Assembly (NCBI GenBank): GCA_038207085.1
Contig: JBBRAE010000006.1
Location: 1,818-65,817 of the forward strand
DNA length: 64,000 nt
Direction of reading: 5' to 3'
DNA from: Armatimonadota bacterium
Lineage (GTDB): Bacteria > Armatimonadota > UBA5829 > DTLH01
In this document: positions 1,594 through 49,659 of the stretch, piece by piece
Layout: each line of letters starts with the position of its first letter
How positions within the stretch are numbered: the first letter of the stretch is position 1
Notes under the pieces: model-generated
Told to the model about the DNA's origin: nothing
Seen by the model: only the letters and a program-made list of their open reading frames with translations
Database searches by the model: none
Position numbers and translations under genes: made by a program

Positions 1594-1665
1594 GAGGCGG
1601 GCGCTACGGACCGAACGGAACGGCTTCGGCGCGCTGCGCCTGTCATAATTCTTCTTATTCTTGCG

Positions 1666-3933
1666 GTGGTGTTCCTCTACCCGGCGCTAAGGCCCGGCTA
1701 CGCGCTCCTACCGGCCCGGTACTTAAGTGCGATGAGCCCCTGGAACGCCTCCCACAGCGCAACCCAGCCGCAGTGGAACCCGCTGATGTGGGACGGGATC
1801 GCCCAGTTCTACCCCTGGAGGGTCCACCTGCACAGGTCGGTTGTCGATGAGGGGATGATCCCGCTTTGGAACCCCTACCAGTTCTGCGGGACCCCGTTTC
1901 TCGCAAATGCCCAGACCGCGCCGCTTTACCCGCTGAATATCTTGTTCATCCTTTTTGAGCCCGTGCGCGCCTTTGGCCTCTCGGCGATGATCCACCTGTT
2001 TCTTGCAGGCGCGTTCACCTTCCTGCTCGCCCGTGCACTTGGGGTAGGCCGCTTCGGGGCGACGGTGTCGGGGGTGACGTTCGCCTTCAGCGCGTTTATG
2101 GTGCTCTGGCTTGAGCTTCCGACGCTTGTAAACGTCGCGACGTGGCTTCCGCTGGTGCTTTATCTAATCCTTCGCGCGTGGGACAGGACCGGGATCGTTC
2201 ACGCGGTCTTCGCGGGCGCGGCTCTTGGGGTCGCGATCCTTGCGGGGCACTTCCAGATAGCCTCCTACGTTGCCTTTGCCGCGGCGAGTTGGTGGGTGTG
2301 GCTTGGAGTGTCAAGGGTGAGAGTCGACGGCGCGGAGTCAATCACGCGAGCGATAAAACTCGGACTCGTCTGTTTCGCGGTCGCATTCCTGGTCGCCGCT
2401 CCACAGGTGCTCCCCACGCTCGAACTCGCGGGGCTTTCCCACCGGGTGCGCGAGGCAACCGCCGCAGGCTACGCAAGCTATCTCAAGAACGCGATTCCCC
2501 TTCGGCATACGATGACGCTTTTCGTCCCGAACTTCTATGGAAACCCCTCCGCGCCCGGCGGCTACTTCGGCGGAAGCGCCGCAAACTTTATGGAGTACGG
2601 CATGTACGTCGGCATTATGCCGTTGCTCTTTGCGATTCTTGGCGCGGTTTTCGCCCTTCGCTGGCGCGCAGCCGGATATTTCCTGCTGCTTGCGGTCATC
2701 TCGTTCCTGCTCGCGGTGGGGACGCCGTTCAATCTCCCGTTCTACTACCTCGTGCCGGGGACAAGCTCGCTTGGCGGGCCTAACAGGGTGATTGTGCTCT
2801 TCTGTTTCTCCATTGCGATGCTTGCGGGCTACGGAGCGCACTGGTTCTCCCAACTCGCGCTTGAGGAGTACCGGGCGACGGGTCGGAAACAGGGCTGGCG
2901 CGCGCTTGCGATCGGCGGAGCGGTCTTTGCGATACTCTTCCTCGCCTGCCAGACGATCACCTCCGGCGGTCTGCAGTCGCTTGGGGTCGACCCCCGACAG
3001 ATCGTTTCCGCGGCGCTCCCTCAGTACGTGCTCTTTGGAGTGATGCTCCTGGGCTCGCTCGGAGTGATGACTATCTACACCGCCGGGCAGCTCCCCAAGG
3101 GGTTTTTCGCGTTTCTTGCGATCTCTGTGATCGTCGCCGATCTCTTCACCTTTGGCATGGGATTTAACCCGGTCTCGCGTGTGGAGCAAGTCTACCCCCG
3201 GACGGGTCTTACCGACTGGCTCGTGAGCAATGCCGGTGACGCGCGCGTGATGCCGATCAACCCGCGTTGGAGCCTTTTCGAGAACCCCGGCGCGCTGCTT
3301 CCTCCAAACGCCGCGACCGTCTTCGGGCTCTGCGACGTGCAGGGGTACGATTCGCTCTTTTACCGCAACTACAAGCAGTTTGTCGACCGCACGCTTGGGA
3401 CGGACTCAAGCCCGCGAGAGAACGGCAATATGCTCCTTATCCCCCGCTACACCCCCGATTGGCCGCAGGGAATGGCCGGTTTGGTGCTCTCCAGGGAGCC
3501 GCTTGGCGCTCGGGGGCTCGAACGGGTCGCGCGGACCGGCGATGTGCTCATCTACCGGCGAACGGCGTTTGGCCCATACCGAAAGACCTACCTAGTGCCC
3601 GCCGACAACGACCCCATCAAGCCCGTATACAGGTCGTGGGTGGCTGACCGCTCGACAAACAGCGTCGTGGTGGTCGCCGAGACCGATCGGCCCGCCCGTG
3701 TGGTATTGGCCGACGCGTTTTATCCCGGCTGGAAGGCTTACGTCGAGGGCGAGGAGCGCCCCGTAACGCCTGCGGATGGTGTGTTTCGCTCGGTTGCAGT
3801 CGAGCCTGGGACCCAGTCGGTCGTCTTCCGGTATGAGCCGGAGAGCTTCCAGATCGGGGTGTTTCTCGGGCTCATTGGCCTCGCGGTTATAGCTGGCGCC
3901 GGTGGGATGGCGTTAGCCGGGAGGCGTGCGTGA
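1666..3933 (+). CDS. YfhO-like polytopic membrane protein (putative GT-C type glycosyltransferase)
   Basis: 755 aa, more than 12 predicted TM helices. The N-terminal WNP(Y)QFCGTPFLANAQTAPLYPLNILF motif resembles the YfhO family. There is a C-terminal soluble domain. GTG start at 1666. The start is uncertain because the open frame continues upstream without an ATG. Confidence 0.6.
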   Translation: MVFLYPALRPGYALLPARYLSAMSPWNASHSATQPQWNPLMWDGIAQFYPWRVHLHRSVVDEGMIPLWNPYQFCGTPFLANAQTAPLYPLNILFILFEPVRAFGLSAMIHLFLAGAFTFLLARALGVGRFGATVSGVTFAFSAFMVLWLELPTLVNVATWLPLVLYLILRAWDRTGIVHAVFAGAALGVAILAGHFQIASYVAFAAASWWVWLGVSRVRVDGAESITRAIKLGLVCFAVAFLVAAPQVLPTLELAGLSHRVREATAAGYASYLKNAIPLRHTMTLFVPNFYGNPSAPGGYFGGSAANFMEYGMYVGIMPLLFAILGAVFALRWRAAGYFLLLAVISFLLAVGTPFNLPFYYLVPGTSSLGGPNRVIVLFCFSIAMLAGYGAHWFSQLALEEYRATGRKQGWRALAIGGAVFAILFLACQTITSGGLQSLGVDPRQIVSAALPQYVLFGVMLLGSLGVMTIYTAGQLPKGFFAFLAISVIVADLFTFGMGFNPVSRVEQVYPRTGLTDWLVSNAGDARVMPINPRWSLFENPGALLPPNAATVFGLCDVQGYDSLFYRNYKQFVDRTLGTDSSPRENGNMLLIPRYTPDWPQGMAGLVLSREPLGARGLERVARTGDVLIYRRTAFGPYRKTYLVPADNDPIKPVYRSWVADRSTNSVVVVAETDRPARVVLADAFYPGWKAYVEGEERPVTPADGVFRSVAVEPGTQSVVFRYEPESFQIGVFLGLIGLAVIAGAGGMALAGRRA

Positions 3934-5501
3934 AAGACGGCTCGGGCCTGAAGATGGCGCTCGTCTGGGCGTGCCTGATAGTGCTTTTGGCCTCCGTGCC
4001 TTACCTTGCGGGGATGCTTCTTGCTCCAGGCGACGGGATGTTTGCGGGGTTCACCTACAACATCGACGACGCATGCGTCTACTCGTCCTGGGTGCGGCAG
4101 GTCGCCGACGGGCACGTGTTCTACCGCAACCTCTACACACCAGAGCCCCAGAGCGCGCTTCAGTTCAACCTGCTTTTCGCGCTGCTTGGAGCCATCTCGC
4201 GCCTGACAGGGATGTCTGCGGCGGCAGTGCTCCACCTCGCGCGCGTCGTGCTCGGGGTCGGGCTGCTGGCGCTGGTGTGGCGGTTTGCTGCGAGGTTCCT
4301 GTCTGACTCGCGCGCCCGCGCCCTTGTCGTGCCGGTCGTTGGCCTTGGTTCGGGGCTTGGGTGGATTCTTCCCAAGGTGCAGGGGCACGCGGGATCGGTC
4401 GACCTCTGGCAGCCTGAGGCTATCACATTTCTTTCAATTTACCTGAACCCGCTCTTTTTAGCGGGCCTCGTCTTGATGCTTGCCGCGCTTCACTTTTTGC
4501 AGAGTCTCGAAGAAACAGGGCGGTGGCGGGACGCTGGGCTTGCCGGACTGATGCTCCTGATCCTTGGAAACGTCCACACCTACGACGTCTTGACCGTCGG
4601 GGCGGTGTGGGCAAGCTACCTTCTGGTTCGGATGATCAGTCGACAGTTGCCCCCGAAACTGGCTCTGCAAAGCCTCGTGGCCGCCGCAATCGCGCTTCCA
4701 TCGGTCGCCTACCAGTTCTATCTATACCGAAGCGTCGAGGTCTTCCGTGCTCGGGTAGAGACCGCCGCACCGTCACCCGTGGTTTGGGCGTACCTCGCAG
4801 GTTTCGGGCTCTTGATAGTGCTCGGGGTGATAGGTGCAAGGCTTGCCCTGCGCGAGCGGCGGGGAATGATTTTGGTCGTTTGGGCGGTCGTCGGCTTTCT
4901 GCTCCCCTACCTGCCCTTTGCTCAGCAGAGGAAGCTTGCGATGGGGCTTCACCTGCCGATCGCGATCCTCGCCTGCGCGGGAATCGCCTGGATCGCGACA
5001 AAGAGCAGGTCCAAGGTGGCCGCGTTGATCATTCTGATACTTCTTGCGCCGTCGAACCTCGTGTTTATGAGCCGGGACATCGGGATGCTGCAATCGGGCG
5101 TCACAGCGCCGCTCTACCCCGCGTATCTGTCCAACTCAGAAGTAAGCGCGCTTCGGTGGATTAGAGATTACTCGGGCGAGCGCGACACGGTTCTTGCCTC
5201 AAGAGAGATTTCGCTCTTCGTCCCGGCGATTGCGGGCAGGACTGTCTACTTCGGTCACTGGAGTGAGACTCCGGACTATGGAAAGAAACTCGGGGAGTGG
5301 ATGCGCTTCATCACCCCCAGCACTTCCGACATTGCCCGGAGGGAGTATCTGGAATCGACCGGTGCGAGGTGGATCATCTATCCCGCACGACCCGGCGAAT
5401 ACGCAGGCACTACCCTCTTTGACCTGCGGCGCGCGCCTTACGTGCGTTTGGCCTATGAAACAGGTAATGTTGCGGTCTACGAAGTGCAATCGAAGTATTG
5501 A
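3930..5501 (+). CDS. Large polytopic membrane protein with a C-terminal soluble domain (GT-C-like putative glycosyltransferase; family unresolved)
   Basis: 523 aa, many hydrophobic helices. Start overlaps the stop of the upstream gene by 4 nt (translational coupling). Clustered with the ArnE/F-like gene and the YfhO-like gene. Confidence 0.45.
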   Translation: MKDGSGLKMALVWACLIVLLASVPYLAGMLLAPGDGMFAGFTYNIDDACVYSSWVRQVADGHVFYRNLYTPEPQSALQFNLLFALLGAISRLTGMSAAAVLHLARVVLGVGLLALVWRFAARFLSDSRARALVVPVVGLGSGLGWILPKVQGHAGSVDLWQPEAITFLSIYLNPLFLAGLVLMLAALHFLQSLEETGRWRDAGLAGLMLLILGNVHTYDVLTVGAVWASYLLVRMISRQLPPKLALQSLVAAAIALPSVAYQFYLYRSVEVFRARVETAAPSPVVWAYLAGFGLLIVLGVIGARLALRERRGMILVVWAVVGFLLPYLPFAQQRKLAMGLHLPIAILACAGIAWIATKSRSKVAALIILILLAPSNLVFMSRDIGMLQSGVTAPLYPAYLSNSEVSALRWIRDYSGERDTVLASREISLFVPAIAGRTVYFGHWSETPDYGKKLGEWMRFITPSTSDIARREYLESTGARWIIYPARPGEYAGTTLFDLRRAPYVRLAYETGNVAVYEVQSKY

Positions 5502-9105: not shown

Positions 9106-10857
9106 ATGCGCACTATGCCTGGACTCACACAATCATCTTTATTCGACTATTATGAAGAACCGTGCTCCGCCGCGTCCAAGACCGTCTCGGATGCGGTTGA
9201 GGAACTTGCGTCCAACAGTGGCGCGGAAGCACGTGGAGCAATATTCACGCGTCGTGAAGTAGTTGATTTTATTCTCGATCTTGTTGGATACACGCCTGAC
9301 AGACCTCTCCACAGATTGTGTCTTCTGGAGCCCTCTTTTGGGGGTGGCGATTTCCTACTCGCGGTGATTGGCCGGCTGCTGGACGCCTGGCGACGGGAAT
9401 CTCATCAGTTAGATTCAGTCGTCGATAACTTGGGCGATGCGATAGTGGCTGTTGAGCTTCATCACGAGACATTTGCGCGCACTCGACAGGCTGTGATAGA
9501 GCAAATCACCCGGGAAGGAATAGAGTCACGATTAGCTGTAGAGTTGGCTGACCGTTGGCTTTCGCAGGGTGATTACTTGCTGCAGCGACTTGGCGAGAGG
9601 TTTGACTTCGTCGTCGGCAACCCTCCGTATGTGCGCCAAGAGATGATTCCTGCCCCACTCTTGGCCGAGTATAGAAGTCGCTATCAAACTATGTATGACA
9701 GGGCTGACATATACGTGGCCTTTATGGAGCGTTCGCTGCTGGTTCTCAAGAATGGTGGCAGTTTGGGCTTCATTTGTGCTGACCGATGGACGAAGAACCG
9801 CTATGGTGGACCCTTGCGCAACCTTGTCTCAGACGGCTTCAGCTTGGACGTGTTTGTTGATATGGTGAACACCCCCGCATTTCACAGCGAAGTGAGCGCA
9901 TATCCCGCCATTACCATCATCAGCAGACAGAAACAGGGTCCGACCCGTGTTGCTCATCGTCCTACTATTGATCGTACCCAACTGTATGCTCTTGCCAAGA
10001 AGCTGCGCGCGGAGCGACTGACACCAGATGATGAGACTTTGCGTGAACTCGCTGGTGTTGTCAAAGGCTCTGAGCCGTGGCTGCTGGATTCGTCCGACCA
10101 AATCTCGGTTCTTCGTCGTCTTGAGGAGCAGTTCCCGTCTCTCGAACGGGCTGGGTGCAAGGTGGGCATTGGTGTGGCTACAGGAGCGGACGACGCCTTT
10201 ATCTCGGATTACGAGACCCTGGACGTGGAGCCGGATCGGAAACTGCCTTTGGTTACAACCCGCGATATTCAGTCCGGCGAAGTTGTATGGCGTGGTCTTG
10301 GCGTCGTGAACCCATTTGCCGAGGACGGAGGTCTTGTCGACCTTAGCGACTATCCGAGACTTGCGCGGTATTTGGAGACACGAAAGGGCGTGATAGCCGC
10401 CCGCCACTGCGCACAAAAGTCTCCGACCCACTGGTATCGCACTATCGACAGGATAACACCGGCTCTCGCGGCACAACCCAAACTACTCGTGCCAGATATC
10501 AAAGGCGAGGCGCATATAGTCTATGAGGAGGGGCGGTTTTATCCGCACCATAACCTTTACTACATTGTGTCTGCGACTTGGAACTTGCGCGCCCTGCAGG
10601 CGGTTCTGCTTTCAAACGTCGCGCGGCTGTTTGTGGCGAACTATTCGACAAGGATGCGTGGAGGTTACCTGCGATTTCAAGCGCAATACTTGCGCCGCAT
10701 CCGAATCCCTTACTGGCAGGATGTGGCAGATGAGTTGCGCTGCGAGTTGATTGAAGCCGCCGAGTCGCGGAACTCGCTGGCATGTGACAGGGCGGTATTC
10801 AGACTTTATGGATTGAGCGAAGATGAGCGCGCAGTATTGGGAGGCAATGGAGAGTAG
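9106..10857 (+). CDS. Type II restriction-modification N6-adenine DNA methyltransferase (gamma-class, Eco57I/TaqI-like N6_Mtase family)
   Basis: 583 aa. The N-terminal [16 protein letters not shown] (AdoMet region) and the catalytic [10 protein letters not shown] (motif IV NPPY) are followed by a long C-terminal target-recognition region. GC content is lower than in the flanking DNA. Confidence 0.85.
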
Positions 10858-18114: not shown

Positions 18115-19278
18115 ATGGACATATCTTCTTTTGACCTGCTGCTATCCGACCAGGGCCGCGGGCTGCTTGAGCGGCTTGCTTTGTCGGACATTTCAGACGA
18201 CAATCTGCTGAAGTTCATAGTGGACCTTCGAAAAGATCACTCACGTGAGCTTGTGGAGGCGGCGGTTGAGACGGCGATGCTTCGGCGGCGCGCCGGAGCC
18301 AAGTTCTCCCGCGCCGGGGAGATGTTTTTCAGCCGGGAAGCGCTTGAGCAGGCCTCGGGCGAGGTCGTCGCCGCGTATCGGGCGGAGCGGTTTTTCGGGT
18401 TTTCCAGGGTTGCGGACCTTGCGTGCGGCGTCGGAGGGGACGCAATCGGACTTGCCGGGGTTACTCAAGTGTTGGCGGTTGACCGCGACCCCTTGAGGCT
18501 CGCGATGGCGCGGGAAAACGCCCGAGTCTGCGGCGTCGGCGAGCGAATCGAGTTTGTCGAGGCCGACCTGACCGAGTTTGATACCCCCGAGGTCGATGCG
18601 ATATTCTTTGACCCGGCGCGACGCGCCGGTGGGCGGCGCAAGGTTTCGGTGCGAGACTACAGCCCGCCGCTTTCGATCATCGAGCGCTGGCAGGGGCGCG
18701 TCCCGGCGATTGGCGTCAAGATTTCCCCGGCAGTCAAAACCGAGGAGATCCCCTGGGACTGCGAGATCGAGTTCATCTCACTTGGCCGCGAGCTAAAAGA
18801 GGCCGCGCTCTGGTTTGGACCGCTTAGGAGTGCACGCAGGCGGGCGACTGTTCTGCCCTCACGGGCGACACTCTTTGGCGGGGAGGAAAACCCCTCGATC
18901 GCAGTCGTCGAGCCCCTTGATTATCTCTACGAGCCTGACCCCGCCGTGATTCGTTCCGGGCTTGTCGAGTCGCTTGCTGAGATGATCGGTGCGAGCAAAA
19001 TCGACCCAGATATCGCCTACCTCACCTCTGACCATCTGGTCGAGACCCCATTTGCGCGGGGGTACCGGGTGCTTGAGACGATGCCCTTTAACGTGAAAAA
19101 ACTAAATGTCCGACTGCGTGAGCTAGGTGTCGGGCGGGTAATCGTGAAAAAGCGCGGGTCGCCCGTCGAGCCGCAGGAGCTGCAAAAGAAGCTGAAGCTC
19201 TCGGGCGCGGGGGAGATGATCGTCGTGCTGACGCATGTGTTGGGTCGCCCGTCGATCCTGCTTTGTAGTGGAGAATAG
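18115..19278 (+). CDS. Class I SAM-dependent methyltransferase (RNA methyltransferase-like, with C-terminal extension), between def and fmt
   Basis: VADLACGVGGDAIGLAG (motif I), VLAVDRDP, and FVEADL...IFFDPARR. Confidence 0.6.
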   Translation: MDISSFDLLLSDQGRGLLERLALSDISDDNLLKFIVDLRKDHSRELVEAAVETAMLRRRAGAKFSRAGEMFFSREALEQASGEVVAAYRAERFFGFSRVADLACGVGGDAIGLAGVTQVLAVDRDPLRLAMARENARVCGVGERIEFVEADLTEFDTPEVDAIFFDPARRAGGRRKVSVRDYSPPLSIIERWQGRVPAIGVKISPAVKTEEIPWDCEIEFISLGRELKEAALWFGPLRSARRRATVLPSRATLFGGEENPSIAVVEPLDYLYEPDPAVIRSGLVESLAEMIGASKIDPDIAYLTSDHLVETPFARGYRVLETMPFNVKKLNVRLRELGVGRVIVKKRGSPVEPQELQKKLKLSGAGEMIVVLTHVLGRPSILLCSGE

Positions 19279-19282
19279 TGTT

Positions 19283-20230
19283 ATGAGAGTCCTATTTATG
19301 GGCACAAGCCCGTTTGCTGTCGCAGCGCTTCAGGCCTTGGTCGACGCCGGATATGAAGTCGTCGGGGTCGTCACCCAGCCCGACCGCCCGAGCGGCCGCG
19401 GCCAGTCCGTGCACAAGTCGCCGGTCAAGGTGTTGGCCGAGTCACTTGGGCTTGAGCTCTTTCAGCCCGAGAAGATCCGCGCGTCGGAGTCAGTCGAGCG
19501 CGTGAAGAGTCTTGAGCCGCTTGATTTCATCGTCGTCGCGGCGTTTGGTCAGATCATCCCCCAGACAATTCTTGACATCCCGCGCCTTGGGAGCATCAAC
19601 GTCCACGGCTCCCTCCTCCCCAAACTCCGTGGCGCCGCGCCGATCCAGTACGCCGTCCTTCAGGGTGAACCAGTCACAGGTGTCACGACCATGCTAATGG
19701 ACGCCGGGCTCGACACGGGCGACATGCTCCTTAAGGCCGAAACCGAGATTCACCCAGACGAAAACGCAGGCGAACTGATGATGCGAATGGCCGAGGTCGG
19801 CGCAGCGCTTCTGATTGAAACGCTACACGGCCTAGAACGGGGTGAGATCACCCCCGAGATGCAGGATGACTCGGAGGCGACCGTCGCCAGGTCGATCAAG
19901 CCCGAGGAGGCGAAGATCGATTGGACCAAGCCCGCGGGAGAGATCGTCAACCTCGTTCGGGCGTTTACCCCGAGGCCTGGGGCCTATACGTTCTTCTCTG
20001 GGAGCCGGATGAAGGTGTTTATGGCTGAAGTTGGGGCAAGTGAGAAGTCGGGAGAAGCTGGGGAGATCGTAGAAGTCGGATCGGACTCGATCACGGTTGT
20101 TGCTGGCGAGGGGTTTGTTAGACTTAGAGAGGTTCAGCCTGAAAACCGAAAGCGAATGAACGCGGGCGAGTTTGCGCGAGGGGCGAGGGTGATGGCTGGG
20201 GCCAAGTTTGACGGCGCAAACCAACCGTGA
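19283..20230 (+). CDS. fmt: Methionyl-tRNA formyltransferase
   Basis: MRVLFMGTSPFAV, VVTQPDRPSGRGQ, INVHGSLLPKLRGAAPIQ. ATG 19283 chosen at the conserved N-terminus; the ORF-track start 19235 adds 16 non-conserved residues. Confidence 0.9.
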   Translation: MRVLFMGTSPFAVAALQALVDAGYEVVGVVTQPDRPSGRGQSVHKSPVKVLAESLGLELFQPEKIRASESVERVKSLEPLDFIVVAAFGQIIPQTILDIPRLGSINVHGSLLPKLRGAAPIQYAVLQGEPVTGVTTMLMDAGLDTGDMLLKAETEIHPDENAGELMMRMAEVGAALLIETLHGLERGEITPEMQDDSEATVARSIKPEEAKIDWTKPAGEIVNLVRAFTPRPGAYTFFSGSRMKVFMAEVGASEKSGEAGEIVEVGSDSITVVAGEGFVRLREVQPENRKRMNAGEFARGARVMAGAKFDGANQP

Positions 20231-20560
20231 CTGTTCTTGCCGCTCTTTCCTGGTTGTTCTACGTGTTTGTCTGCTTGTCCTTCACAAAACCGCGCATCAT
20301 ATTGCCAAAACGCGCACCAGAGTGCTTGAAATCGGTATATAATGTTGTTATACTGCAATCGAGCGTGGGTAATTGTCGAGAACTTCGCGGATCCACGGCA
20401 CATTCGATTGCGTCCGAATTTTGGGCTATTTTCATATATCATTGGGTTGACGGACGAGGTACGCGCGGAGTTTCAAACCGTGCTCGCACAGTCGACCCGC
20501 AAAACGATACAGCAAAGTGCAACTTCACACTGTTGGTAGAAACGTGAGGCAGAACAGCTT

Positions 20561-22453
20561 TTGAACGGCCAAGAGAAACACGCCGTGTCCGAGTTGGTCA
20601 AGGTGACATTCGAGCCGGATGGCATAGATATTTTCGCGCCTGTCGGGGAGACCCTCTCCCGGGCGGCGCTTGGCGCTGGGTGCGCGGTCGAGACCCCCTG
20701 CGGCGGTATGGGCACGTGCGGCAAGTGCAGAGTATCGGTAGCCGGAAGCGTCTCGGAGCCAGACGCAAGCGAAACAAGATTTCTTAGCGAAAGCGAGCTC
20801 GCTAGTGGTATAAGGCTGGCGTGTCGCACGAAAATTACCGGCGAAGTCACCGTGACCGTGCCCCAGGCCAGCCGTTCTCTCGTACAGAAGATCCTGAGCG
20901 ACGGCATCACAAACGACGTTCATCTGCACCCGGCGGTTACAAAGCTCTATGTGAGCCTGCCGAAGCCCTCGCTTGAGGACGAACGCGGCGAGTTCGAGCG
21001 GCTTGCGGCTGGACTTTCTATCTATGACGTGGCGGCGACCATCGGTGTCGCGATGGCGCGCAAGCTGCCAAAGATTTTGCGAGAATCCGACTATCACGTA
21101 ACCGCGGTCGTTGTAGATAATGAGCTGATCGCAGTCGAGCCAGGCGACACCGCGTGGGCCAACTATGGCATCGCCTACGATCTCGGGAGCACGACAGTCG
21201 TCGGTTATCTTATAGATATGAACACCGGCCATGAGGTCGGGGTAGCGTCGGCGATGAACCCGCAAATCGCTTACGGGGACGACCTGGTAGCGCGGATCAA
21301 CTTCGCGATGACCGAGGAAAACGGCCTTGAGATGCTTCGCACGTCGGTCGTCGATGTGTTAAACAGCATCGCCAAGCGACTTGCCGAGACTCATGACATG
21401 TCGCTTGCGAACGTATACGAAGTGACGCTTGTAGGCAACACCTGCATGGCGCACGTGTTCCTCGGGCTCGACGTGTCAACCCTGGGCCTGTCGCCCTACG
21501 TGCCGACGGTCTGCAGCGAGATGGTCCTGCGAGCTGACGAGGCTGGAATGCTGATAAACCCCGGCGCAAGAGTTCACGTATTGCCAAACGTCGCGGGGTT
21601 TGTCGGAAGCGACCTTATTGCGGTGGTCCTCTCGACCCTTCGGGACGGTGAGAGCCGCACGCGCCTTGCGGTTGACGTAGGCACCAACGGCGAGATGGCG
21701 CTTGTGCACAAGGGACAGATTTGGGCGTGTTCCGCGGCGGCCGGGCCTGCATTCGAAGGCGCGAGGATCAGCAGCGGGATGCGCGGCGGGCCGGGGGCCA
21801 TCGACTCGGTCGAGATAGACGAGACAGTCAGGATTACGACGATCGACAACCGGCGGGCGGTCGGGCTCTGCGGCTCGGGGCTTGTCGATGCGGTCGCGGA
21901 GATGCTTTCTGCGGGGATCGTCGAGAGCACAGGGCGCTTGATCGACCCGGAAGAGGCGACGCACCTGCCGATGGCCGTTCGTGAGCGGCTTGTGCGGGTC
22001 GGCGACGGCGTCGAGTTTATCCTCGCGACCGAGCAGGAGTCGGCCAGGCGGGAGCCGGTCACGATCACGCAGCGGGACGTCCGACAGCTTCAGCTTGCCA
22101 AGGGTTCGATCCGTGCGGCGATCGAGACGCTTCTCAAAGTCGCAGGGGCGAGCTGGGAGGACTTGGACGAGATCTTCCTTGCCGGAGCATTTGGAAATTA
22201 CATTAGGAGGGAAAGCGCTGTAAGAATAGGGTTGCTTCCTCCGATAGATATTGATAATATAGTGCCTGTAGGCAACGCGGCAGGCGCTGGCGCGAAACTT
22301 GCGCTTATCTCCGTTCGAGAGCGGGAGCGGGCTAGTAGGTTGGCGGAAAAGATCGAGCATATCGAGCTTGCGAGCCACCCCGACTACGAGAACGAGTTTA
22401 TGGATAAGATGCTTTTCCCGGAAGCGGCTGGGGAAGTAATTACTGCAATATAA
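20561..22453 (+). CDS. Corrinoid reductive activase (RACo / O-demethylase activating-enzyme type): N-terminal plant-type 2Fe-2S ferredoxin domain plus ASKHA-fold ATPase domain
   Basis: N-terminal CGGMGTCGKCRV...C 2Fe-2S motif. A large C-terminal ASKHA/DUF4445-like domain has DLGSTTVVG and VDVGTNGEMAL phosphate-binding motifs. TTG start. Confidence 0.8.
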   Translation: MNGQEKHAVSELVKVTFEPDGIDIFAPVGETLSRAALGAGCAVETPCGGMGTCGKCRVSVAGSVSEPDASETRFLSESELASGIRLACRTKITGEVTVTVPQASRSLVQKILSDGITNDVHLHPAVTKLYVSLPKPSLEDERGEFERLAAGLSIYDVAATIGVAMARKLPKILRESDYHVTAVVVDNELIAVEPGDTAWANYGIAYDLGSTTVVGYLIDMNTGHEVGVASAMNPQIAYGDDLVARINFAMTEENGLEMLRTSVVDVLNSIAKRLAETHDMSLANVYEVTLVGNTCMAHVFLGLDVSTLGLSPYVPTVCSEMVLRADEAGMLINPGARVHVLPNVAGFVGSDLIAVVLSTLRDGESRTRLAVDVGTNGEMALVHKGQIWACSAAAGPAFEGARISSGMRGGPGAIDSVEIDETVRITTIDNRRAVGLCGSGLVDAVAEMLSAGIVESTGRLIDPEEATHLPMAVRERLVRVGDGVEFILATEQESARREPVTITQRDVRQLQLAKGSIRAAIETLLKVAGASWEDLDEIFLAGAFGNYIRRESAVRIGLLPPIDIDNIVPVGNAAGAGAKLALISVRERERASRLAEKIEHIELASHPDYENEFMDKMLFPEAAGEVITAI

Positions 22454-22484
22454 CAGAGCAGTAAGCCAATTAGGAGGACTAAAA

Positions 22485-23114
22485 GTGGCGGATCTTTCAG
22501 CATTGGCTCAGGCCATTATCAGCGGCAAGAAGGACCAGGCGGAGGCGATCACCAAAGAGGCGATCGCTGAGGGCATGCCTGCTGGTGATATCCTGAACAA
22601 CGGCCTGGTGGCCGGAATGAACGTTGTTGGACAGAAGTTCAAGGCAAACGAGTTTTACGTACCTGAGGTTCTTATCGCGGCAAGGGCGATGAAGGCGGCT
22701 ATGGTACAGTTGAAGCCGGCGCTCGCAGAGACCGGCGCACAGCCGGTTGCACGTGTTGCGATCGGAACAGTCAAGGGCGACCTTCACGACATCGGCAAGA
22801 ACCTTGTTGCTATGATGCTCGAAGGCGCTGGGTTTGAGATTATCGACCTCGGCGTCGATGTCAAGCCCGAGAAATTCGCGGAGGCGGTTACAGATAAGAA
22901 GGCGAACATCATCGCCCTCTCCGCGCTTCTCACCACGACCATGCCTGCGATGAAGGACACTATCGCCTCACTTGAGGCGGCCGGAATTCGCGACCAGGTC
23001 AAGATCATGATCGGTGGCGCTCCCGTCACACAGAACTACGCAGACGAGATCGGCGCAGACGGTTATTCGTCCGACGCTGCAAGCGCTGTGGACACTGCGA
23101 GGAGCTTCGTATAG
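22485..23114 (+). CDS. Cobalamin-binding corrinoid protein of a methyltransferase system (MtaC/MtbC/MttC-like)
   Basis: 209 aa with the B12-binding DxHxxG motif (GDLHDIGKN) in a Rossmann-like domain, and an N-terminal helical cap. GTG start is preceded by AGGAGG. Confidence 0.85.
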   Translation: MADLSALAQAIISGKKDQAEAITKEAIAEGMPAGDILNNGLVAGMNVVGQKFKANEFYVPEVLIAARAMKAAMVQLKPALAETGAQPVARVAIGTVKGDLHDIGKNLVAMMLEGAGFEIIDLGVDVKPEKFAEAVTDKKANIIALSALLTTTMPAMKDTIASLEAAGIRDQVKIMIGGAPVTQNYADEIGADGYSSDAASAVDTARSFV

Positions 23115-23157
23115 AAAGATCAACTGCCCCCAAGGGGTGGTTTGGTTTGTTGATAAT

Positions 23158-23200
23158 CGGCCCGGCTGCTTATTGCGGCTGGGCCGTTTGTTATTTGGGG
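23158..23200 (+). terminator. Rho-independent terminator downstream of the corrinoid-protein gene
   Basis: CGGCCCGGCTGC-TTATT-GCGGCTGGGCCG forms a 12-bp stem with two G-U pairs. It is followed by TTTGTTATTTGGGG. Confidence 0.55.
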
Positions 23201-23298
23201 CGGCGCTCAGTTCTTCGGGCTGGGTTTGGAGTTGTGCTTACGATGCGGCAGGCAACATGGGGCGGGTAGACCAAGATCATCTACAGGCCGGACGGGGT

Positions 23299-24285
23299 TC
23301 ACTTGGCTTTCGCGTGCCTGATAAACTCCTCGACTCCCCATATCTGCCACTGCGGGTCTATCCCGAGGCTTTCGGGGCTCCAGTAGTATCCGGCGATAAA
23401 CCCGCCGTTGAAGCTTCCGAGTTTGTCGATGTATTCGCGGGCGGTCGCTTGTATCTGTTCTTTGTCGGCCTTGGGGAGCTTCCACTGGGTGTCGATCGGG
23501 CTCCAGATCGAAACCCGTCCGCCGATGGTTTCACGGAGCCAGTCGATCCCCGAGAGCTCAGGCTGGTCGAGCTGAAGCACCGTTACGCCGACGTTGGCGA
23601 GGGTGGGGATGATATCTTTAATATAGCCGCAGGAGTGCATCCATGTGTGCAGCCCGAGCTTTTTCGCGTGCTCGACAAGCTCCCGGTAGCCGGGCTCGAA
23701 AATCTCATGCCAGCACTTCGGGCTCACGAGCAGCCGCTCCTGTGTGCCCCAGTCCTCGGCCCACATCACGCCGTCGGCTCCGGCCCACGCAAACTGATCC
23801 ATGCAGCCTTTCAGCATCCGGACGATTATCCCCTGAAGCTCCATCACCTTCTTAGGGTAAAGAAGAACGTCTGCGAGGAACTCTTCCATAAGCCGCATAT
23901 AGCGCATGATGGCAAACGGAAACCCCGGCAGGTGTCCGAGGTGATACTTGTCGGGTTCTGCGTCAAAGGCGTCTTTCGCTTCCTGGTATCGCAACTTCTG
24001 GTCAAACGAGGGCATCTTGTAGGTCGAAAGCGCGTCCCAGTCCTTCAGTCCGCCTTCGATCACTTCGCCCCGGGTGGTGTTTGAGAACCGTTTCCAGACG
24101 TTACCCCACTCGTCCTCCCACTGAGCTCCGTCCTCCATCTCCCAGGTGCGCGACGGCTTCCAGTTGGGGTCGGGAGCGACTCCCCTGCTGACAAAATCGT
24201 TTGGATAAGGCTCGGGAAACGTCATCGGGACTCTGTCGGTCCCGGTGAAGGTGACGCATCTTTTGACTCTTTCACGGCTAGTCAT
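23299..24285 (-). CDS. Uroporphyrinogen-decarboxylase (URO-D)/MtaA-family corrinoid methyltransferase
   Basis: 328 aa in the URO-D-like TIM-barrel family. It is convergent with, and adjacent to, the corrinoid protein and RACo genes. Confidence 0.8.
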   Translation of the reverse strand: MTSRERVKRCVTFTGTDRVPMTFPEPYPNDFVSRGVAPDPNWKPSRTWEMEDGAQWEDEWGNVWKRFSNTTRGEVIEGGLKDWDALSTYKMPSFDQKLRYQEAKDAFDAEPDKYHLGHLPGFPFAIMRYMRLMEEFLADVLLYPKKVMELQGIIVRMLKGCMDQFAWAGADGVMWAEDWGTQERLLVSPKCWHEIFEPGYRELVEHAKKLGLHTWMHSCGYIKDIIPTLANVGVTVLQLDQPELSGIDWLRETIGGRVSIWSPIDTQWKLPKADKEQIQATAREYIDKLGSFNGGFIAGYYWSPESLGIDPQWQIWGVEEFIRHAKAK

Positions 24286-36792: not shown

Positions 36793-37770
36793 CTATTCAG
36801 CCGGGCAGTTGCTCGCGACTGCTCCTCGAAGCGGGTTTGCGAGCATATCGATCACCTGATCGGTAAGCGACGGATTGAACCCTCCGGGGTGGGGGAATAT
36901 TGAATAGCTTAGCTCGATCATCCCGGTTCGGGGCGTGCCCGGACCCGCGACAATCAGCCTGATAGCGCTCCCATCGGCCGTTATCGGGAAGTTCCCGTCG
37001 CCTATCACCGTGACCCCTTCTTTGCGGTTTGAGAGATCAGACCAATCGTAACCGACAGTCCCGATTCTTGGCCCAAAGGACGCTTTGGCGTCTTTCAGCG
37101 CGATTGGGATCGCGATTATTAGCTCTGCGTCAGGCGTTCCCTGCCAGTCGACGGTGACTTTCACGTCTACCCGGGGGAGGCCTTCGTGCATCACCACGTC
37201 TTGAACTAATGATGAGCCTCCACACTTATACTCGGAGCGAATTGTCGCTCGCGCCGGTCCGTTTTCGATCAGGTCTACCTGTTCAAGCTTGACGGTGCTC
37301 GGTTTTCCAGCCTGAGCGAACTCGATGGTGCAGGCCTGCGCGCCCTTGGGGACAAGTTGCTTGCCCGCAAGCTTGCTGAAGAGGTCGGAGACGGCGCCGG
37401 TTTTGGGGTCGATCGAAACCCGAGCGTGTTCGTTCTCAAGGGTAAGTGAGCGAGCCGACAGGCGGCTGGATGCGCGGCTTGCGACCGGTTTGATCCAGAA
37501 AAGCCGACAGCTTTTGCCGGGGATGTCCTTGGCGACGAACGTTATTCTGTCGCCGACGACCTGTCCCGCAAACGACACCTTTCCGTTGGTGATGACAACC
37601 GCGTGGGTCTTCTCCACATCAAACGGCGAGTCCACATCGACACTGTCGGTGCGTTCCCAGCCCGATGGGTTTGAGACCGCAACCGCGATCGGTGTGACTT
37701 GTCCCTTCGCACAAAGCAGAGACGGCAGCGTGGTTATGATGAATGTTACAGTAAGCCAGAAGCTCCTCAA
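36793..37770 (-). CDS. Secreted hypothetical protein (beta-sandwich-rich)
   Basis: Signal peptide MRSFWLTVTFIITTLPSLLCA. No recognisable catalytic motif. Confidence 0.5.
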   Translation of the reverse strand: MRSFWLTVTFIITTLPSLLCAKGQVTPIAVAVSNPSGWERTDSVDVDSPFDVEKTHAVVITNGKVSFAGQVVGDRITFVAKDIPGKSCRLFWIKPVASRASSRLSARSLTLENEHARVSIDPKTGAVSDLFSKLAGKQLVPKGAQACTIEFAQAGKPSTVKLEQVDLIENGPARATIRSEYKCGGSSLVQDVVMHEGLPRVDVKVTVDWQGTPDAELIIAIPIALKDAKASFGPRIGTVGYDWSDLSNRKEGVTVIGDGNFPITADGSAIRLIVAGPGTPRTGMIELSYSIFPHPGGFNPSLTDQVIDMLANPLRGAVASNCPAE

Positions 37771-38384: not shown

Positions 38385-39599
38385 ATGGAAAGGGCTGCTG
38401 TAATGAACGCACTGAGGCTTGCGGAGGTCGACTCGAAGATCATCTGCGAAGAGGACATGGGCGGGTACCGCCGCGTCACAGGTGAGTTCTGGACTGCGCG
38501 CCAGCGCCAGATGCACAGCATCCACTACGCCGTAAGCTACCGTGCTTCGTTCAAGCCGGAATTGCCCTGCTACTTCATCGACCGCTACTGCTCCGACTCC
38601 GAGCGCGACATCGTCTTTGACCCGTTCGGCGGACGCGGGACGACCATTTTGCAGGCCAATATCGGCGGCTACCGCGGCATCTCAAACGACGTGAACCCGC
38701 TTTCCGAGCGCATCTCCCGGCCAAAGACCCTCCCAGTTACAATCGAAGAAATGGGCGCGGCGCTTGAGCAGATCGACCTGTCAGTCGAAGTGGACGTGTC
38801 GGATTATGAGGCGTTTGCGCCTTTCTATCACATAGATACGTACCGTGAGATACTCGCACTGAGGCAATATCTTCTGGACAACCGAACCGAGGCGGACTGC
38901 TTTATAGAGATGATCGCCCTTTCGCGTCTGCATGGGCACAGTGGAGGCTTTTTCTCGGTATACTCGTTCCCCCAGATATCGGTGCCGTCTGCGTCGCAGG
39001 CGAGGATCAACGAGCAGCGCAACCAGACTCCCAATTATCGTCCAATCAAGCCCCGAATCTTGAAAAAAGCCAAGAGCGTCCTAAGAGATTTTAACCCGTC
39101 CGAGCTTGCCGAGCTTCGAAGTGTCGCAGACCACAACCGATTCACCTGCCACGACACGCGCAAGCTTTCGGGCATCGGCGACGGCGAGGTCGCCCTGATC
39201 GTCACCTCTCCGCCGTTTCTCAACAAGGCCGACTACATTCAGGACAACTGGCTTGAGTTCTGGTTCCTGGGTATCGACCCCACTCCACTGCGCGAGCAGG
39301 TCGTCCAGACCGATAACCTCGACACTTGGACCCAGTTTATGACGGGAAGTATGCAGGAGATGCTTCGGGTTCTGCGCGAGGGCGGCGTCGCGGTGGTCGA
39401 GGTAGGGGACATAAAATACGGCAAAAAAGTAGTGAACCTTGATGAAACGATAGTGGAAATCGCCCAGGAGATCGGCTTCGGCGTTGAAGAGGTGTTGATC
39501 AACTCCCAGCAGTTCACCAAGCTTGCGAACTGCTTCAACGTAGACAACATGACCAAAGGCACCAACACAAACCGCCTGGCAGTGCTAAGAAAAATCTAA
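38385..39599 (+). CDS. DNA methyltransferase (N4-cytosine or N6-adenine; motif I before TRD before motif IV) with no nuclease partner in the window
   Basis: Motif I VFDPFGGRGTT and motif IV LIVTSPPFLN (SPPF). Confidence 0.8.
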   Translation: MERAAVMNALRLAEVDSKIICEEDMGGYRRVTGEFWTARQRQMHSIHYAVSYRASFKPELPCYFIDRYCSDSERDIVFDPFGGRGTTILQANIGGYRGISNDVNPLSERISRPKTLPVTIEEMGAALEQIDLSVEVDVSDYEAFAPFYHIDTYREILALRQYLLDNRTEADCFIEMIALSRLHGHSGGFFSVYSFPQISVPSASQARINEQRNQTPNYRPIKPRILKKAKSVLRDFNPSELAELRSVADHNRFTCHDTRKLSGIGDGEVALIVTSPPFLNKADYIQDNWLEFWFLGIDPTPLREQVVQTDNLDTWTQFMTGSMQEMLRVLREGGVAVVEVGDIKYGKKVVNLDETIVEIAQEIGFGVEEVLINSQQFTKLANCFNVDNMTKGTNTNRLAVLRKI

Positions 39600-41236: not shown

Positions 41237-44200
41237 GTGAATCAGGAAAACAGGTCAGTCGAGGTTCTAAACGGTTGGTGGGATTTTCTGCCGATCGACC
41301 ACCCGGTCAATGGTAGACACGATTTTGGATTGGAAGGATCGTTGGAACCGGTGCAGCCGATTATTCCTGAGACGGTTCCCTCGGACGGCTGGCTGGCGGC
41401 GGCTTATCTCGTGCCGGGGTTCTTTACGGACCATTACTATCCTGAGGATTGGCAAAAGTGCAGGAACGCCTGGGCCAGGACTCGGTTTGATGTCGGGACG
41501 CTCGTGAGCGGGCGAAGAGCGTATCTTCTCATCGGCGGGGCGATCCAGCAGGCTTATATTTTTGTAAACGGCGAGAGAGTCGCGGTGCAGGAGGACATGT
41601 TCATCGGCGATGAGGTCGATATCACGGGCAGCCTCCGCGACGGAGAAAACGAGCTTGCCGTCTTTATCACAGAGTTTCCCACGTTCCCTCATCCCACCAA
41701 CGAGAAGATCAGGCTTATCGATCACCCCTGGGGGTGCTGTATATCCCATTCCCAGGCCGGGATCTGGCAGGATGTGACGCTGGAATGGCGGTCGGCGGTC
41801 CATGTGTCCGACGTGACGATCAGGACTAGCGTGCGCGAGAGTGCGATTACGGTCATCTCCAAAGTGCGAAATGACGGGATGTCTGCGTTTGATGGAACGC
41901 TCTCGGGGATAGTTGAGGACGCCGGGAGCGATGTGTTCAAGCTTCCCGAGGTTACAGTGTCAGTTGGGCCTGGCGAGGAGATAGAGCTCACACAGACGGC
42001 GCAGTGGACGGATTACCGGGAGTGGTGTCACGAAGACCCACATCTCTACCACCTGCGCCTCACGATTCCTGGCGTCGATGTGAAACGCGAGAGGTTCGGA
42101 TTTCGGGAAGTCTGGATCGATGGGCACAGAATGTTGCTCAACGGTCGGCCCCAGAGATGGAGCGGCGAGTGGTGCCACAAAGCCCACGCTCACTGGATCA
42201 GACCTGAGTATATCCGACAGTACTACAAGCAGATCAAAGACCTGAACATGAACTACGTTCGGATGCACACATTTCCGCACCCGCAGCAGTATCTCGACAT
42301 CGCGGATGAGATGGGGATATTCGTCTGCCAGGAGTCCGCGCTTCACGGTTCCGGACCCTATGGATGGGATACCCCCGCGCTCTGGGAGCGCTCAGCGAAA
42401 CACGTTGCCCGAATGGTGCGGCGCGACAAGAACCACCCGTCTCTTGTGCTCTGGAGCGTCGAAAACGAGATGCGGTGGGCGCTTAACATCGTTCCAAGTT
42501 CCAAAACGGAGCTGCCGAAGCTTCGGAAGCTCTTCAACGAGCTCGAACCTACCCGGCCCGCCTATCACGACGGCGATAGTTCTCTCTGGAATGAAGATGA
42601 ACAGCCGATTATTTCGCGTCACTACGGCCCCCCATGCCATGGCTGGGGTTGGTGGGAGAAGAAGAACGTTCTGCACGCGGGGGAGATGGGCCGATGGCAC
42701 TACGCCTCGCCCTATACGGCGCTTCAGTGGGCTGGGGATGAGGTATACACCGACTACCGCCTGCTCTCACAGTCGATTGCCCGCGACTGCGCACGAATTG
42801 TCGAGCTTGGGCGTGCCAACGAGGTCACCTGCGCGTTCATCTGGAACACTTCAGGCCTTGACAACTTCAGGTCGTCAGAGGCCAAGACCTTTACTTGGGA
42901 TGACCCCCGGAGCCGCTATATCAAGCCTCTCGCGCATCGGCCATACGAGTCTGAATACGCCTGGTGGGAAGACGGCGCGGGTTATCGCCCCGGTGCGAGC
43001 TTCGAGGTGATGAAACAGGCCTTCAGGCCGCTTGCGCTCGTGATCCGTGAGGAGCGGACGCAGTTCTACAACGACGCTCTGGCTCATCATACCGTCTATG
43101 TTGTAAACGACCTCGCATCGGACGTTGAGGGCGACCTCACGGTGCGGTTGGAGCAGAATGGGACTGTCCTCTGGGAGACGAGCGAACGTGTGTCGGTCGG
43201 CAGGGGGCTCACGGGGACGGTGACCGTCCATGTCCCACTTACAGGGACGAGTGAGGGCGACGCGGTGATTGTGACCGGGCTTGCCTGCGAATCAGGAGTC
43301 GACGAAGTGCGACGTGATCTCAGGGTCGCGGACAAATCGGCTCTTCTCGACAAACTCGACCTGCCGGTAGTTGCAGTCTGGGGTGAAGGCAGGATTCTGC
43401 CGTGGCTCAAGTCCCATGGGATAAGAACCAAGGTCATCGACAGCCTCTCCGAGCTCAATGCCGAGCAAACACCGATCGTGATCGTTGCGGAGAACACGGT
43501 AGAACCTGGAAGCGACTGTAACGCCAGGCTCAGGTCGTTTGTGGCGTCTGGGGGGCGGGCGCTTGTGCTTGAGCAGGCCAATTCTATCTTTCCAGGCGTG
43601 TCGATGGCTAGAATGCCGGTTGAGATGGCCCATGTTCGGTCTGTTCACCATTCGGTGACGCGCGGGATCACGGGCGCGGACCTGAGGTTCTTTGGTGATG
43701 ATCCGTACGGCGTGCCGTCCTCCAATAGTTGGGTCACGCTCTACCCCTACCTCAAGCCTGTCGAGGAGCAGTTGGTGCGGCCGATAATCGACTCAAGCGG
43801 CGGTGATTTTTCCTCAGGTGGGCTTACGTGGGCCCCAGTCATCGAGGCACAGATAGGGACAGGGACGGTGATTGCCTCTCAGCTTAGGCTGTTCGATCGG
43901 CTCGATGACCTGCCTGTTGCAGACCATCTGCTGCGAAACGCTCTTGACTATCTGGCGCGCTACGAACCCGAAATGTGCTTCACGTGGGCGGATGACGGCA
44001 TGATGGCCCGGCTTCCGGAGCTATTTCCAAACGACGCAGACTTCTACTCAGGGTCCGCGCCGTCGAGTTCGCTTCTAGTCGGAGACAAGATTCCGACCGA
44101 GGATGCGGCTGAGTGGCGGAGATGGATCGAGAACGGGCAAACGGTGGTTGTCTGGGGACTCACGGAGGCCGCAAAAGGGTTCTGGGAGCAGGTCGCAGGT

Positions 44201-49653: not shown

Positions 49654-49659
49654 AATCGG

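Follow-up and report, generated by a model that had tools for sequence, protein, structure and literature searches.

Corrinoid carriers and their reductive activators are already known, in bacteria that are not acetogens, to be encoded apart from the methyltransferases they serve (PMC5764234, PMC12478193). In Phaeobacter inhibens, a RamA-like protein composed of Fer2 and DUF4445 domains and a cap/B12 protein serve a three-part MetH whose homocysteine- and pterin-binding subunits are encoded elsewhere, and genetic evidence from this genus also connects DUF1638 with RamA-like B12 reactivation; in Desulfovibrio, RamA-like proteins are cofit with MetH (PMC5764234). MtgC of Ruegeria pomeroyi is common to methionine synthesis and betaine demethylation, with the subunits at separate loci (PMC12478193). 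Type 1 mlp clusters, by comparison, are inherited as clusters and bring together one or more UroD-superfamily proteins, a corrinoid protein and a RACE activator with no H4folate methyltransferase, and their minimum content is Mlp2 and Mlp3, each sharing about 30% identity with MtaA, MtbA or MtsA (PMC10418091, Kountz & Balskus). Within the superfamily itself, UroD proper is not a metalloenzyme and MtaA uses zinc to activate its thiol substrate (PMC539065). Considered here against these systems is a stretch of 64,000 nucleotides (hereafter the window) from the metagenome-assembled genome (MAG) of an Armatimonadota bacterium (GCA_038207085.1), these 64 kb being the only sequence of that genome examined, in which genes for a RACo-type activase, a corrinoid protein and a URO-D-family protein stand side by side.

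A first-pass annotation had described these three open reading frames (ORFs), and the ORF list, Pfam and a motif check bear out their coordinates, strands and motifs. It had also read them as three of the four components of an O-demethylase-like module, and on this point the comparative evidence leads elsewhere. The reading favored here, at a rough probability of about 0.6, is that the first two genes form a conserved, terminator-bounded operon that would serve a dispersed corrinoid methyltransferase system as its core, and that the URO-D gene is an accidental neighbor. The features concerned are the following.

20326 to 20354, plus strand: promoter-like site, TTGAAA and TATACT around a 17-nucleotide spacer with an upstream TG; 10 of 12 consensus matches, a consensus match only.
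20448 to 20544, plus strand: 3' remnant of a small TPR gene, a pseudogene fragment in which 20467-20544 match residues 87-119 of the TPR protein of the nearest relative (locus L096).
20561 to 22453, plus strand: RACo/RACE-type ATP-dependent reductive activator of corrinoid proteins, 630 aa with a TTG start, assigned from Pfam domains, a match to PDB 3zyy and motifs.
22485 to 23114, plus strand: stand-alone corrinoid (cobalamin) carrier of the MtxC type, a cap domain and a Rossmann B12 domain in 209 aa.
23158 to 23196, plus strand: predicted intrinsic-terminator-like hairpin and T-run, the hairpin at 23158-23186 with 12 pairs, 10 of them G-C.
23299 to 24285, minus strand: cytoplasmic URO-D-fold protein of an uncharacterized subfamily (PF01208, 328 aa, H217-x-C219).

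The identity of the first gene is clear at the level of family. As the first-pass annotation held, its product is a RACo-type activase with a CGGMGTCGKC [2Fe-2S] motif and an ASKHA ATPase: Pfam finds an N-terminal [2Fe-2S] Fer2 domain (37.8 bits) followed by RACo_linker (75 bits), Raco_middle (183 bits) and the ASKHA domain RACo_C_ter (271 bits), so that both the ferredoxin domain and the linker/middle/ASKHA portion of the RACo/RACE activators (COG3894) are present. The protein aligns over its full length with the RACo structure of Carboxydothermus hydrogenoformans (PDB 3zyy, 352 bits), its cysteine ligand set is C47-x5-C53-x2-C56 plus C88, and the phosphate-binding DxG motifs of the ASKHA domain are D207-L-G-S-T and D372-V-G-T-N. 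The AcsV model (NCBIfam NF040756) is covered end to end at 445 bits, below its cut-off of 800, and the acs or cdh (CODH/ACS) genes that would mark an AcsV context were found neither in the window nor in the orthologous loci.

The second gene encodes a carrier whose B12-binding_2 (81 bits) and B12-binding (106 bits) domains and DxHxxG motif, D99-L-H-D-I-G at residues 99-104, likewise agree with the first-pass description and predict that cobalamin is bound. Its best structural match is the Moorella cobalamin-binding protein 1y80 (212 bits), followed by MttC, the Desulfitobacterium protein 4jgi (Dhaf, 141 bits) and MtmC, all of them above MetH; MtxC-type carriers as a group score 139-212 bits, MetH B12 domains about 105 and CarH about 30. 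The cap and B12 domains with DxHxxG that characterize TIGR02370 are present, yet the score lies below the curated cut-off for that model (200.0 versus 215.3) and for MtgC (216 versus 370), MtbC (198 versus 350) and MtaC (123-126 versus 420-450). Judged by these profiles, the protein is a generic methyltransferase-cognate member of its family with no substrate assignment.

What makes these two genes a unit is their conservation together. Nine orthologous RACo loci with 57-88% amino acid identity were compared (L007, L008, L009, L090, L091, L093, L094, L096 and L097), the nearest relative being L096 (RACo 88% identical); a metagenome scan with the single RACo protein as query had yielded three loci, and the closest matches of both the RACo and the URO-D proteins are in Armatimonadota MAGs. 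The corrinoid protein gene lies directly 3' of RACo in seven of the nine, L097 being cut by a contig end and L009 having no adjacent copy, and gene order in L090 and L091 agrees with that of the other loci. A small TPR gene lies just 5' of RACo in eight of the nine, intact at 115-120 aa in L008, L009, L090, L093, L094, L096 and L097 and truncated to 63 aa in L007, and its product appears to be a conserved partner of RACo in Armatimonadota. The usual upstream string is gmk-coaBC-metK-priA-def-fmt; downstream, genes for a 141-aa protein and a TMEM234/EamA-like protein are usually followed by YfhO and by a gene for a membrane protein of about 530 aa. In the annotated or searched flanks of all nine loci neither a URO-D gene nor any other methyltransferase was found, so that the corrinoid protein is in none of them encoded beside a cognate methyltransferase. 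Given that the operon holds no methyltransferase, either here or in the Armatimonadota orthologous loci, it would act as a shared carrier/activator core. Relative to L096, RACo has a ratio of nonsynonymous to synonymous substitution rates (dN/dS) of 0.081 and the corrinoid protein one of 0.094, values that indicate strong purifying selection on both, and the TTG start of RACo and its GAGG ribosome-binding site are kept in L096.

The limits of the unit can be placed by the same comparison. The region at 20231-20560, which the first-pass annotation regarded as a likely regulatory stretch, is indeed AT-richer (48% GC versus 58% for the window), carries the promoter-like site and has no B12 riboswitch; what had escaped notice is that part of it is a gene remnant. 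By blastn, 20298-20456, which covers the promoter-like site, aligns with L096 1677-1836, the region upstream of the L096 TPR gene, while L096 1837-2208 has no counterpart in the window, so that a deletion of about 370 bp took the 5' two-thirds of the TPR gene and left a pseudogene fragment. Pieces of this fragment, lying in two different reading frames, can be matched to the TPR proteins of L008 and L009. The AT-richer region is thus an intergenic stretch plus a gene remnant. At the other end, the terminator hairpin begins 44 bp after the stop codon of the corrinoid protein, and L096 has an equivalent hairpin in the same place with different stem bases. From these comparisons, the RACo-corrinoid unit at about 20330-23196 on the plus strand is taken to be an ancestrally three-gene and now two-gene operon.

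Some details of the TPR gene deserve mention in their own right. It is mostly deleted in the window, where RACo and the corrinoid protein stay intact, and in L093 it overlaps the start of RACo; its coordinates are 1837-2306 in L096, 7629-7976 in L008 and 7560-7907 in L009.

From the terminator onward, with the breakpoint inside its hairpin, the locus has been rearranged. The blastn alignment of L096 with the window is collinear over 18655-23164, with one gap, and then ends 50 bp past the stop codon of the corrinoid protein, between the corrinoid and URO-D genes; the next genes in L096 past this breakpoint are unrelated, and none is a URO-D gene. The block that in relatives stands directly 3' of the corrinoid gene is now about 21 kb from it, where tblastn with the downstream genes of L007, L008 and L094 finds it at 1201-5486:

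1201 to 5501, plus strand: displaced block encoding a TMEM234/EamA-like small membrane protein, YfhO and a membrane protein of about 524 aa (tblastn).

Since collinearity ends here and the ancestral block is displaced, the junction between the corrinoid and URO-D genes is a lineage-specific synteny break. What the analysis shows is the content of the locus, the limits of the operon, its conservation, its rearrangement and the absence of conserved linkage, and on this comparative record the URO-D gene became a neighbor by recent lineage-specific rearrangement, and a three-part demethylase module is not supported. The URO-D gene is a separate transcription unit outside the operon. The gap between it and the corrinoid gene, toward which it is convergent, measures 184 bp, and it closes a series of minus-strand genes, separated by 70 bp from the secreted NAGPA-like gene that precedes it.

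The displaced block looks like an envelope-glycosylation set. It occupies 10912-15299 in L007, 10630-14903 in L008 and 12821-17518 in L094 and persists in relatives down to 57% identity, and the corrinoid-TMEM234-YfhO association is broken in the window, L096 and L009; its link to the corrinoid pair may be functional or simply inherited synteny. On the upstream side, a THUMP-like class I SAM methyltransferase (PF18096 and Methyltransf) at 18115-19278 lies between def and fmt, its ORF overlapping that of fmt by 44 bp. It is common to L096; in L007 and L008 def is followed directly by fmt.

The URO-D protein is of interest independently of its position. Assignment to PF01208, as in the first-pass annotation, holds, with a weak match of 51.9 bits over residues 121-298, and the comparison with curated models separates it from the heme pathway: it matches TIGR01463 at 36.4 bits (cut-off 235.4), MtaA_Meth at 36 (400) and PRK06252 at 40.9 (244), five members of its subfamily match only MtaA/CmuA-type NCBIfam models (29-53 bits, cut-offs 235-400), and hemE (TIGR01464) gives no match at E<=10 for the window protein and 10-14 bits against a cut-off of 303 for two relatives. 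In these models it does not group with HemE. Neither of the findings that the first-pass annotation named as refuting it, a grouping with HemE or a corrinoid protein devoid of B12 binding, is borne out, the B12-binding motif being present. The AlphaFold model (pLDDT 91) has TM scores of 0.63-0.73 to HemE and MtaA at 13-18% identity, and in Foldseek these two are not separable, the fold likeness being at the level of the superfamily. The subfamily comprises at least 820 relatives, all of about 310-350 aa. In an alignment and profile of 28 members (A1), the invariant positions are H217-x-C219 (MHSCG), E177-D-W-G-T-Q, W56/D58/E59/W60, R128/Y129, Q241-P242, D265/Q267 and Y301, and among PDB entries the A1 profile finds only MtaA (E=0.0075). 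H217-x-C219 aligns with H-I-C of MtaA (4ay7), and D240 with a Glu. The MtaA zinc site is presumably formed by H-x-C, a Glu and a distal Cys, and a conserved distal, or third, Cys is missing from the A1 alignment. On these profile matches the protein is not HemE, is closer to MtaA and belongs to no curated family, and it resembles a metal-dependent methyltransferase.

Linkage of this subfamily to corrinoid proteins was sought in a scan of species-representative genomes, which gave 232 relatives, with the genomic context read in the best 80 loci, each from a different species. In none of these 80 does a corrinoid protein or RACo gene lie within 10 kb of the URO-D-family gene, and a phmmer search of their flanks (1.14 Mb) returned no homologue of the window RACo or corrinoid protein and no MetH B12 domain. 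The only two B12-binding matches among the neighboring genes, considered as carriers, proved on inspection to belong to class-B radical SAM enzymes. Nor do the window's own neighbors on the URO-D side recur in any of the 80.

It is on this evidence that the view of RACo, corrinoid protein and URO-D protein as a single module encoded in cis, of the O-demethylase or mlp type and devoid only of a methyl-corrinoid:tetrahydrofolate methyltransferase, must be judged. The genes are physically adjacent, the URO-D protein matches MtaA/CmuA-type models over hemE with its H-x-C aligned to MtaA, URO-D-corrinoid fusions occur among close relatives of the corrinoid protein, and UroD, corrinoid protein and RACE are known to cluster in the absence of an H4folate methyltransferase (PMC10418091). 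Against this, the URO-D gene sits on the opposite strand behind a conserved terminator, the synteny breakpoint falls between it and the corrinoid gene, and linkage is found in 0/9 orthologous RACo loci and 0/80 of the best URO-D-family loci. Further, the MtaA/CmuA-type matches reach only 36-41 bits against cut-offs of 235-400, and a type 1 mlp cluster needs at least two SCMT-like Mlps of about 30% identity, where the window has one URO-D protein about 14% identical to MtaA. A single cis-encoded module is accordingly improbable, and the claim of three of four components is not supported. The accompanying statement that no pterin-binding or second substrate-specific methyltransferase is present in the window does stand: Pfam finds no Pterin_bind, MTTB or second URO-D among the 35 long ORFs scanned (168-1317 aa, including every non-nested ORF of at least 180 aa).

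The relatives of the corrinoid protein are varied in architecture. A library-wide search returned 15,464 of them, and many at about 50-56% identity are fusion proteins, with MTTB (P0270), Pterin_bind (P0297), S-methyl_trans (P0295, P0314) or URO-D (P0283, P0306, P0326, P0327, P0331, P0333, P0360) as the fused domain. Such variety implies that the clade serves many kinds of methyltransferase. The same variety defeats the use of fusion partners as Rosetta stones, in that every methyltransferase class and regulators too are represented and the client is not identified in this way. Three further corrinoid-domain fusions (P0252, P0355, P0368) begin with stretches of 350-430 aa that match no Pfam family, and these could be unrecognized methyltransferase modules.

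In six other relatives of about 50-56% identity (P0259, P0260, P0262, P0282, P0309, P0354) the corrinoid domain is fused to an AraC-type HTH or to PocR and histidine kinase domains, and their sequences suggest B12-sensing regulators derived from methyltransferase carrier proteins. This raises the idea that the window protein is itself a B12 sensor or storage protein and not a methyl carrier, all the more as CarH-type photoreceptors have the same cap and B12 architecture. Pfam finds in it no DNA-binding or signaling domain, however, its best matches are methyltransferase carriers with CarH far lower at about 30 bits, and its being paired with an ATP-dependent Co(II) reductase is meaningful only if Co(I) chemistry is involved. 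A role as sensor or store is therefore very improbable.

If the corrinoid protein is a shared carrier, its clients may include URO-D enzymes in trans. One version of this idea is that a single corrinoid-RACo pair serves several dispersed URO-D methyltransferases in sugar or glycan loci, for example in removing methyl ethers from methylated sugars. The MtaA-like His-x-Cys, with D240 aligned to the MtaA Glu, would suit such a function, and the A1 profile scores higher on URO-D-corrinoid fusions (98.7 bits for P0306, 65 for P0333, 47-55 for P0360, P0327 and P0283, hence 47-99 overall) than on MtaA (18). In hhalign, A1 and the URO-D domain of P0306 match with a probability of 99.3% at 25% identity over 320 columns, with HSCG, DEWG and VDxQ conserved and D240 not, and the corrinoid domain of P0306 is 50% identical to the window protein. 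It is plausible, at the level of the superfamily, that A1-like domains can work with this corrinoid clade, as the window gene may also do. The genomic contexts also point toward sugars. The best 80 loci are distributed among Armatimonadota, Hebobacteria, Anaerolineae, Planctomycetota/Brocadiia, Poribacteria, Latescibacterota, Limnochordia and Mahella; their first neighbors include SBP_bac_5 (12), GFO_IDH_MocA (5), MFS/nucleoside symporters (3), DUF4886 (3), a URO-D paralogue (3) and AraC (2), and their second neighbors PGM/PMM (7), radical SAM (4), GH10, GH2, xylose-isomerase-like and GntR proteins. GH78, GH141 and GH172 are added in individual Armatimonadota loci. Tandem URO-D paralogues occur, both gene sets are abundant in Armatimonadota, and the sole route of sugar demethylation found in the literature is an aerobic P450 (PMC6292453). 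Weighing on the other side are the absence of linkage in all of the best 80 loci, the mere 25% identity of the fused URO-D domains and the non-conservation of D240 in P0306, and the lack of a counterpart to the third Cys, presumably a zinc ligand in MtaA; nor does any observation identify a substrate. Service to dispersed URO-D enzymes of this kind is on balance unlikely.

A wider form of the proposal is a hub-and-spoke organization in Armatimonadota, and perhaps in other glycan-degrading phyla, in which one TPR-RACo-corrinoid core would serve dispersed URO-D enzymes that demethylate sugars anaerobically. It is speculative and at present doubtful. Were it true, these enzymes would be a cobalamin-dependent anaerobic counterpart to the aerobic P450 sugar demethylases. 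Literature searches combining Armatimonadota with corrinoids, URO-D with glycoside hydrolases, and corrinoids with methylated sugars found nothing relevant.

Several individual URO-D loci are worth recording. Tandem paralogues lie at L001 10001-12174 and L005 10001-12148, the L001 pair adjoining a GH78 rhamnosidase and GH141/beta-helix genes. Within a clade of about 50% identity (L033, L034, L036, L040) the URO-D gene stands between two genes of about 600-660 aa, an arrangement suggestive of a conserved operon for taking up and catabolizing an imported compound; over the 80 loci as a whole, SBP_bac_5 is the commonest first-neighbor family and PGM/PMM the commonest second. At L006 3415-6219 (Armatimonadota, GCA_900174595.1), a 934-aa fusion of DUF1638 with hydantoinase_A (ASKHA-type) is encoded about 4 kb from a URO-D-family gene.

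The other candidate client is methionine synthesis. Here the pair would be the cobalamin subunit and the reactivase of a housekeeping split methionine synthase, with PF02574 and PF00809 subunits encoded elsewhere. Its parts are those of the split MetH of Phaeobacter and Ruegeria, namely cap+B12 and Fer2+DUF4445 (PMC5764234, PMC12478193); both genes persist throughout the phylum, under strong purifying selection and within the gmk-coaBC-metK-priA-def-fmt string, and about 52% identical relatives of the corrinoid protein occur as fusions with S-methyl_trans or Pterin_bind. On the negative side, no PF02574, PF00809 or DUF1638 gene lies in the window or flanks, equally close relatives are fused to MTTB, URO-D and regulators, so that the fusions are not discriminating, and the synteny with def-fmt may be mere inheritance. 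The corrinoid protein is also nearer to MtxC carriers (139-212 bits) than to MetH B12 (about 105), an objection weakened by the fact that roseobacter MtgC is likewise not MetH-derived (PMC12478193). A split methionine synthase in this strict sense is a tentative possibility, at odds well short of even. As a client of the core, nevertheless, methionine synthesis is the most economical candidate.

The favored reading, a carrier/activator core of a dispersed system, can be put in mechanistic terms that draw on knowledge of the families. The corrinoid protein would carry cobalamin, cycling between Co(I) and methyl-Co(III), and would move methyl groups between methyltransferases. The activase would take on an electron at its [2Fe-2S] cluster and, by ATP hydrolysis in the ASKHA domain, re-reduce inactive Co(II) to Co(I); that RACo adjoins the corrinoid protein in seven of nine loci is circumstantial evidence for Co(II) reduction on this partner. 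Carrier and activator together would be shared by methyltransferase subunits encoded elsewhere, the URO-D enzyme being at most one possible client in trans. Methyl shuttling, ATP-dependent reactivation and the identity of clients thus belong to the inferred part of the proposal.

Several considerations weigh against this reading. By rough estimate, the a priori chance that in a single genome a URO-D gene would come to adjoin the only corrinoid-RACo pair does not reach 1%. In its features the URO-D subfamily resembles metal-dependent methyltransferases and not HemE, and its closest corrinoid-linked relative, P0306, is a URO-D domain fused to a corrinoid domain 50% identical to the window protein, which makes a functional link of the URO-D protein in trans plausible. 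Client methyltransferases were not identified within the 64 kb of genome. Homocysteine- and pterin-binding genes were likewise not found in the 1.55 Mb of all fetched loci together, a sample too small to inform; E. coli MetH (homocysteine, pterin and reactivation domains) as query of this sequence matched only the orthologous corrinoid proteins, and the result has no bearing on the idea of a split MetH. Finally, the promoter and terminator are consensus matches and not transcript data.

The implications are chiefly for annotation. Adjacency alone would have given an O-demethylase-like annotation in an uncultured Armatimonadota lineage; comparative context reduces the conserved unit to carrier and activator, and the question is no longer that of a missing fourth component but of which dispersed methyltransferases rely on the core. 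The first-pass annotation had held that the module would be a notable capability in an organism that is not an acetogen or methanogen. With dispersed cores known from non-acetogens (PMC5764234, PMC12478193) and clusters of UroD, corrinoid protein and RACE described (PMC10418091), the capability is less notable than supposed. Two by-products of the analysis are a defined, widespread URO-D subfamily that has an MtaA-like metal motif and occurs in sugar-related contexts, and a small TPR protein consistently coupled to RACo in Armatimonadota.

The rest of the window holds no paralogue of the RACo, corrinoid protein or URO-D gene, and no cobalamin riboswitch at the Rfam gathering score or at E<=1; weak Rfam matches to a fluoride riboswitch and sraL, sub-threshold and inside coding sequence, were dismissed as chance. 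Defense-type genes occur at 9106-10857, 38385-39599 and 47090-52066, comprising an Eco57I/TaqI-like restriction-modification methylase, an N6_N4 DNA methylase, a SNF2 helicase-Mrr fusion and two adjacent BrxC/BrxD-like ATPase genes. Glycan-degrading genes are abundant, lying at 36793-37770, 41237-45190 and 53848-55170, and encode a 1317-aa GH2-family protein and GH28/beta-helix and GH38-C-like proteins.

The locus can be set beside the known systems. The activase has the same full-length domain order as RACo/AcsV of Carboxydothermus hydrogenoformans (3zyy, 4c1n) and the RACE of O-demethylases, but its partner in the window is a small MtxC-type corrinoid protein in place of CoFeSP, and neither CoFeSP nor CODH/ACS genes were found near it. 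O-demethylases (OdmABCD/VdmB, MtvABC, Dhaf_4610-4612) use the same types of component, a URO-D-superfamily methyltransferase I (MT I), a small corrinoid protein and an activating enzyme; they are, however, operons that include methyltransferase II (MT II), whereas the window has no MT II and no conserved linkage to an MT I, so that the four parts of an acetogen O-demethylase operon are not co-encoded in it. From type 1 mlp clusters it differs in having a single URO-D protein, about 14% identical to MtaA and encoded on the other strand, whose adjacency is not conserved. To MtaA (PDB 4ay7) the URO-D protein is alike in its barrel (TM 0.63-0.68) and aligned H-x-C, and unlike in its low identity, about 14%, in the lack of a conserved third Cys and in the sugar and transport gene neighbors of its subfamily.

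The stand-alone cap+B12 carrier and ferredoxin-DUF4445 activase of the split methionine synthase and Mtg systems both have their counterparts in the pair. Differences from the roseobacter split MetH lie in the adjacency of carrier and activase in the window, with a small TPR gene preceding the pair in relatives; in the absence of a DUF1638 partner nearby and of homocysteine- and pterin-binding subunits in the sequence examined; and in the host, a member of the Armatimonadota, many of the relatives coming from anaerobic reactors. By analogy, the dispersed-core layout proposed here would nonetheless match that of the genetically demonstrated roseobacter split methionine synthase/glycine-betaine system.

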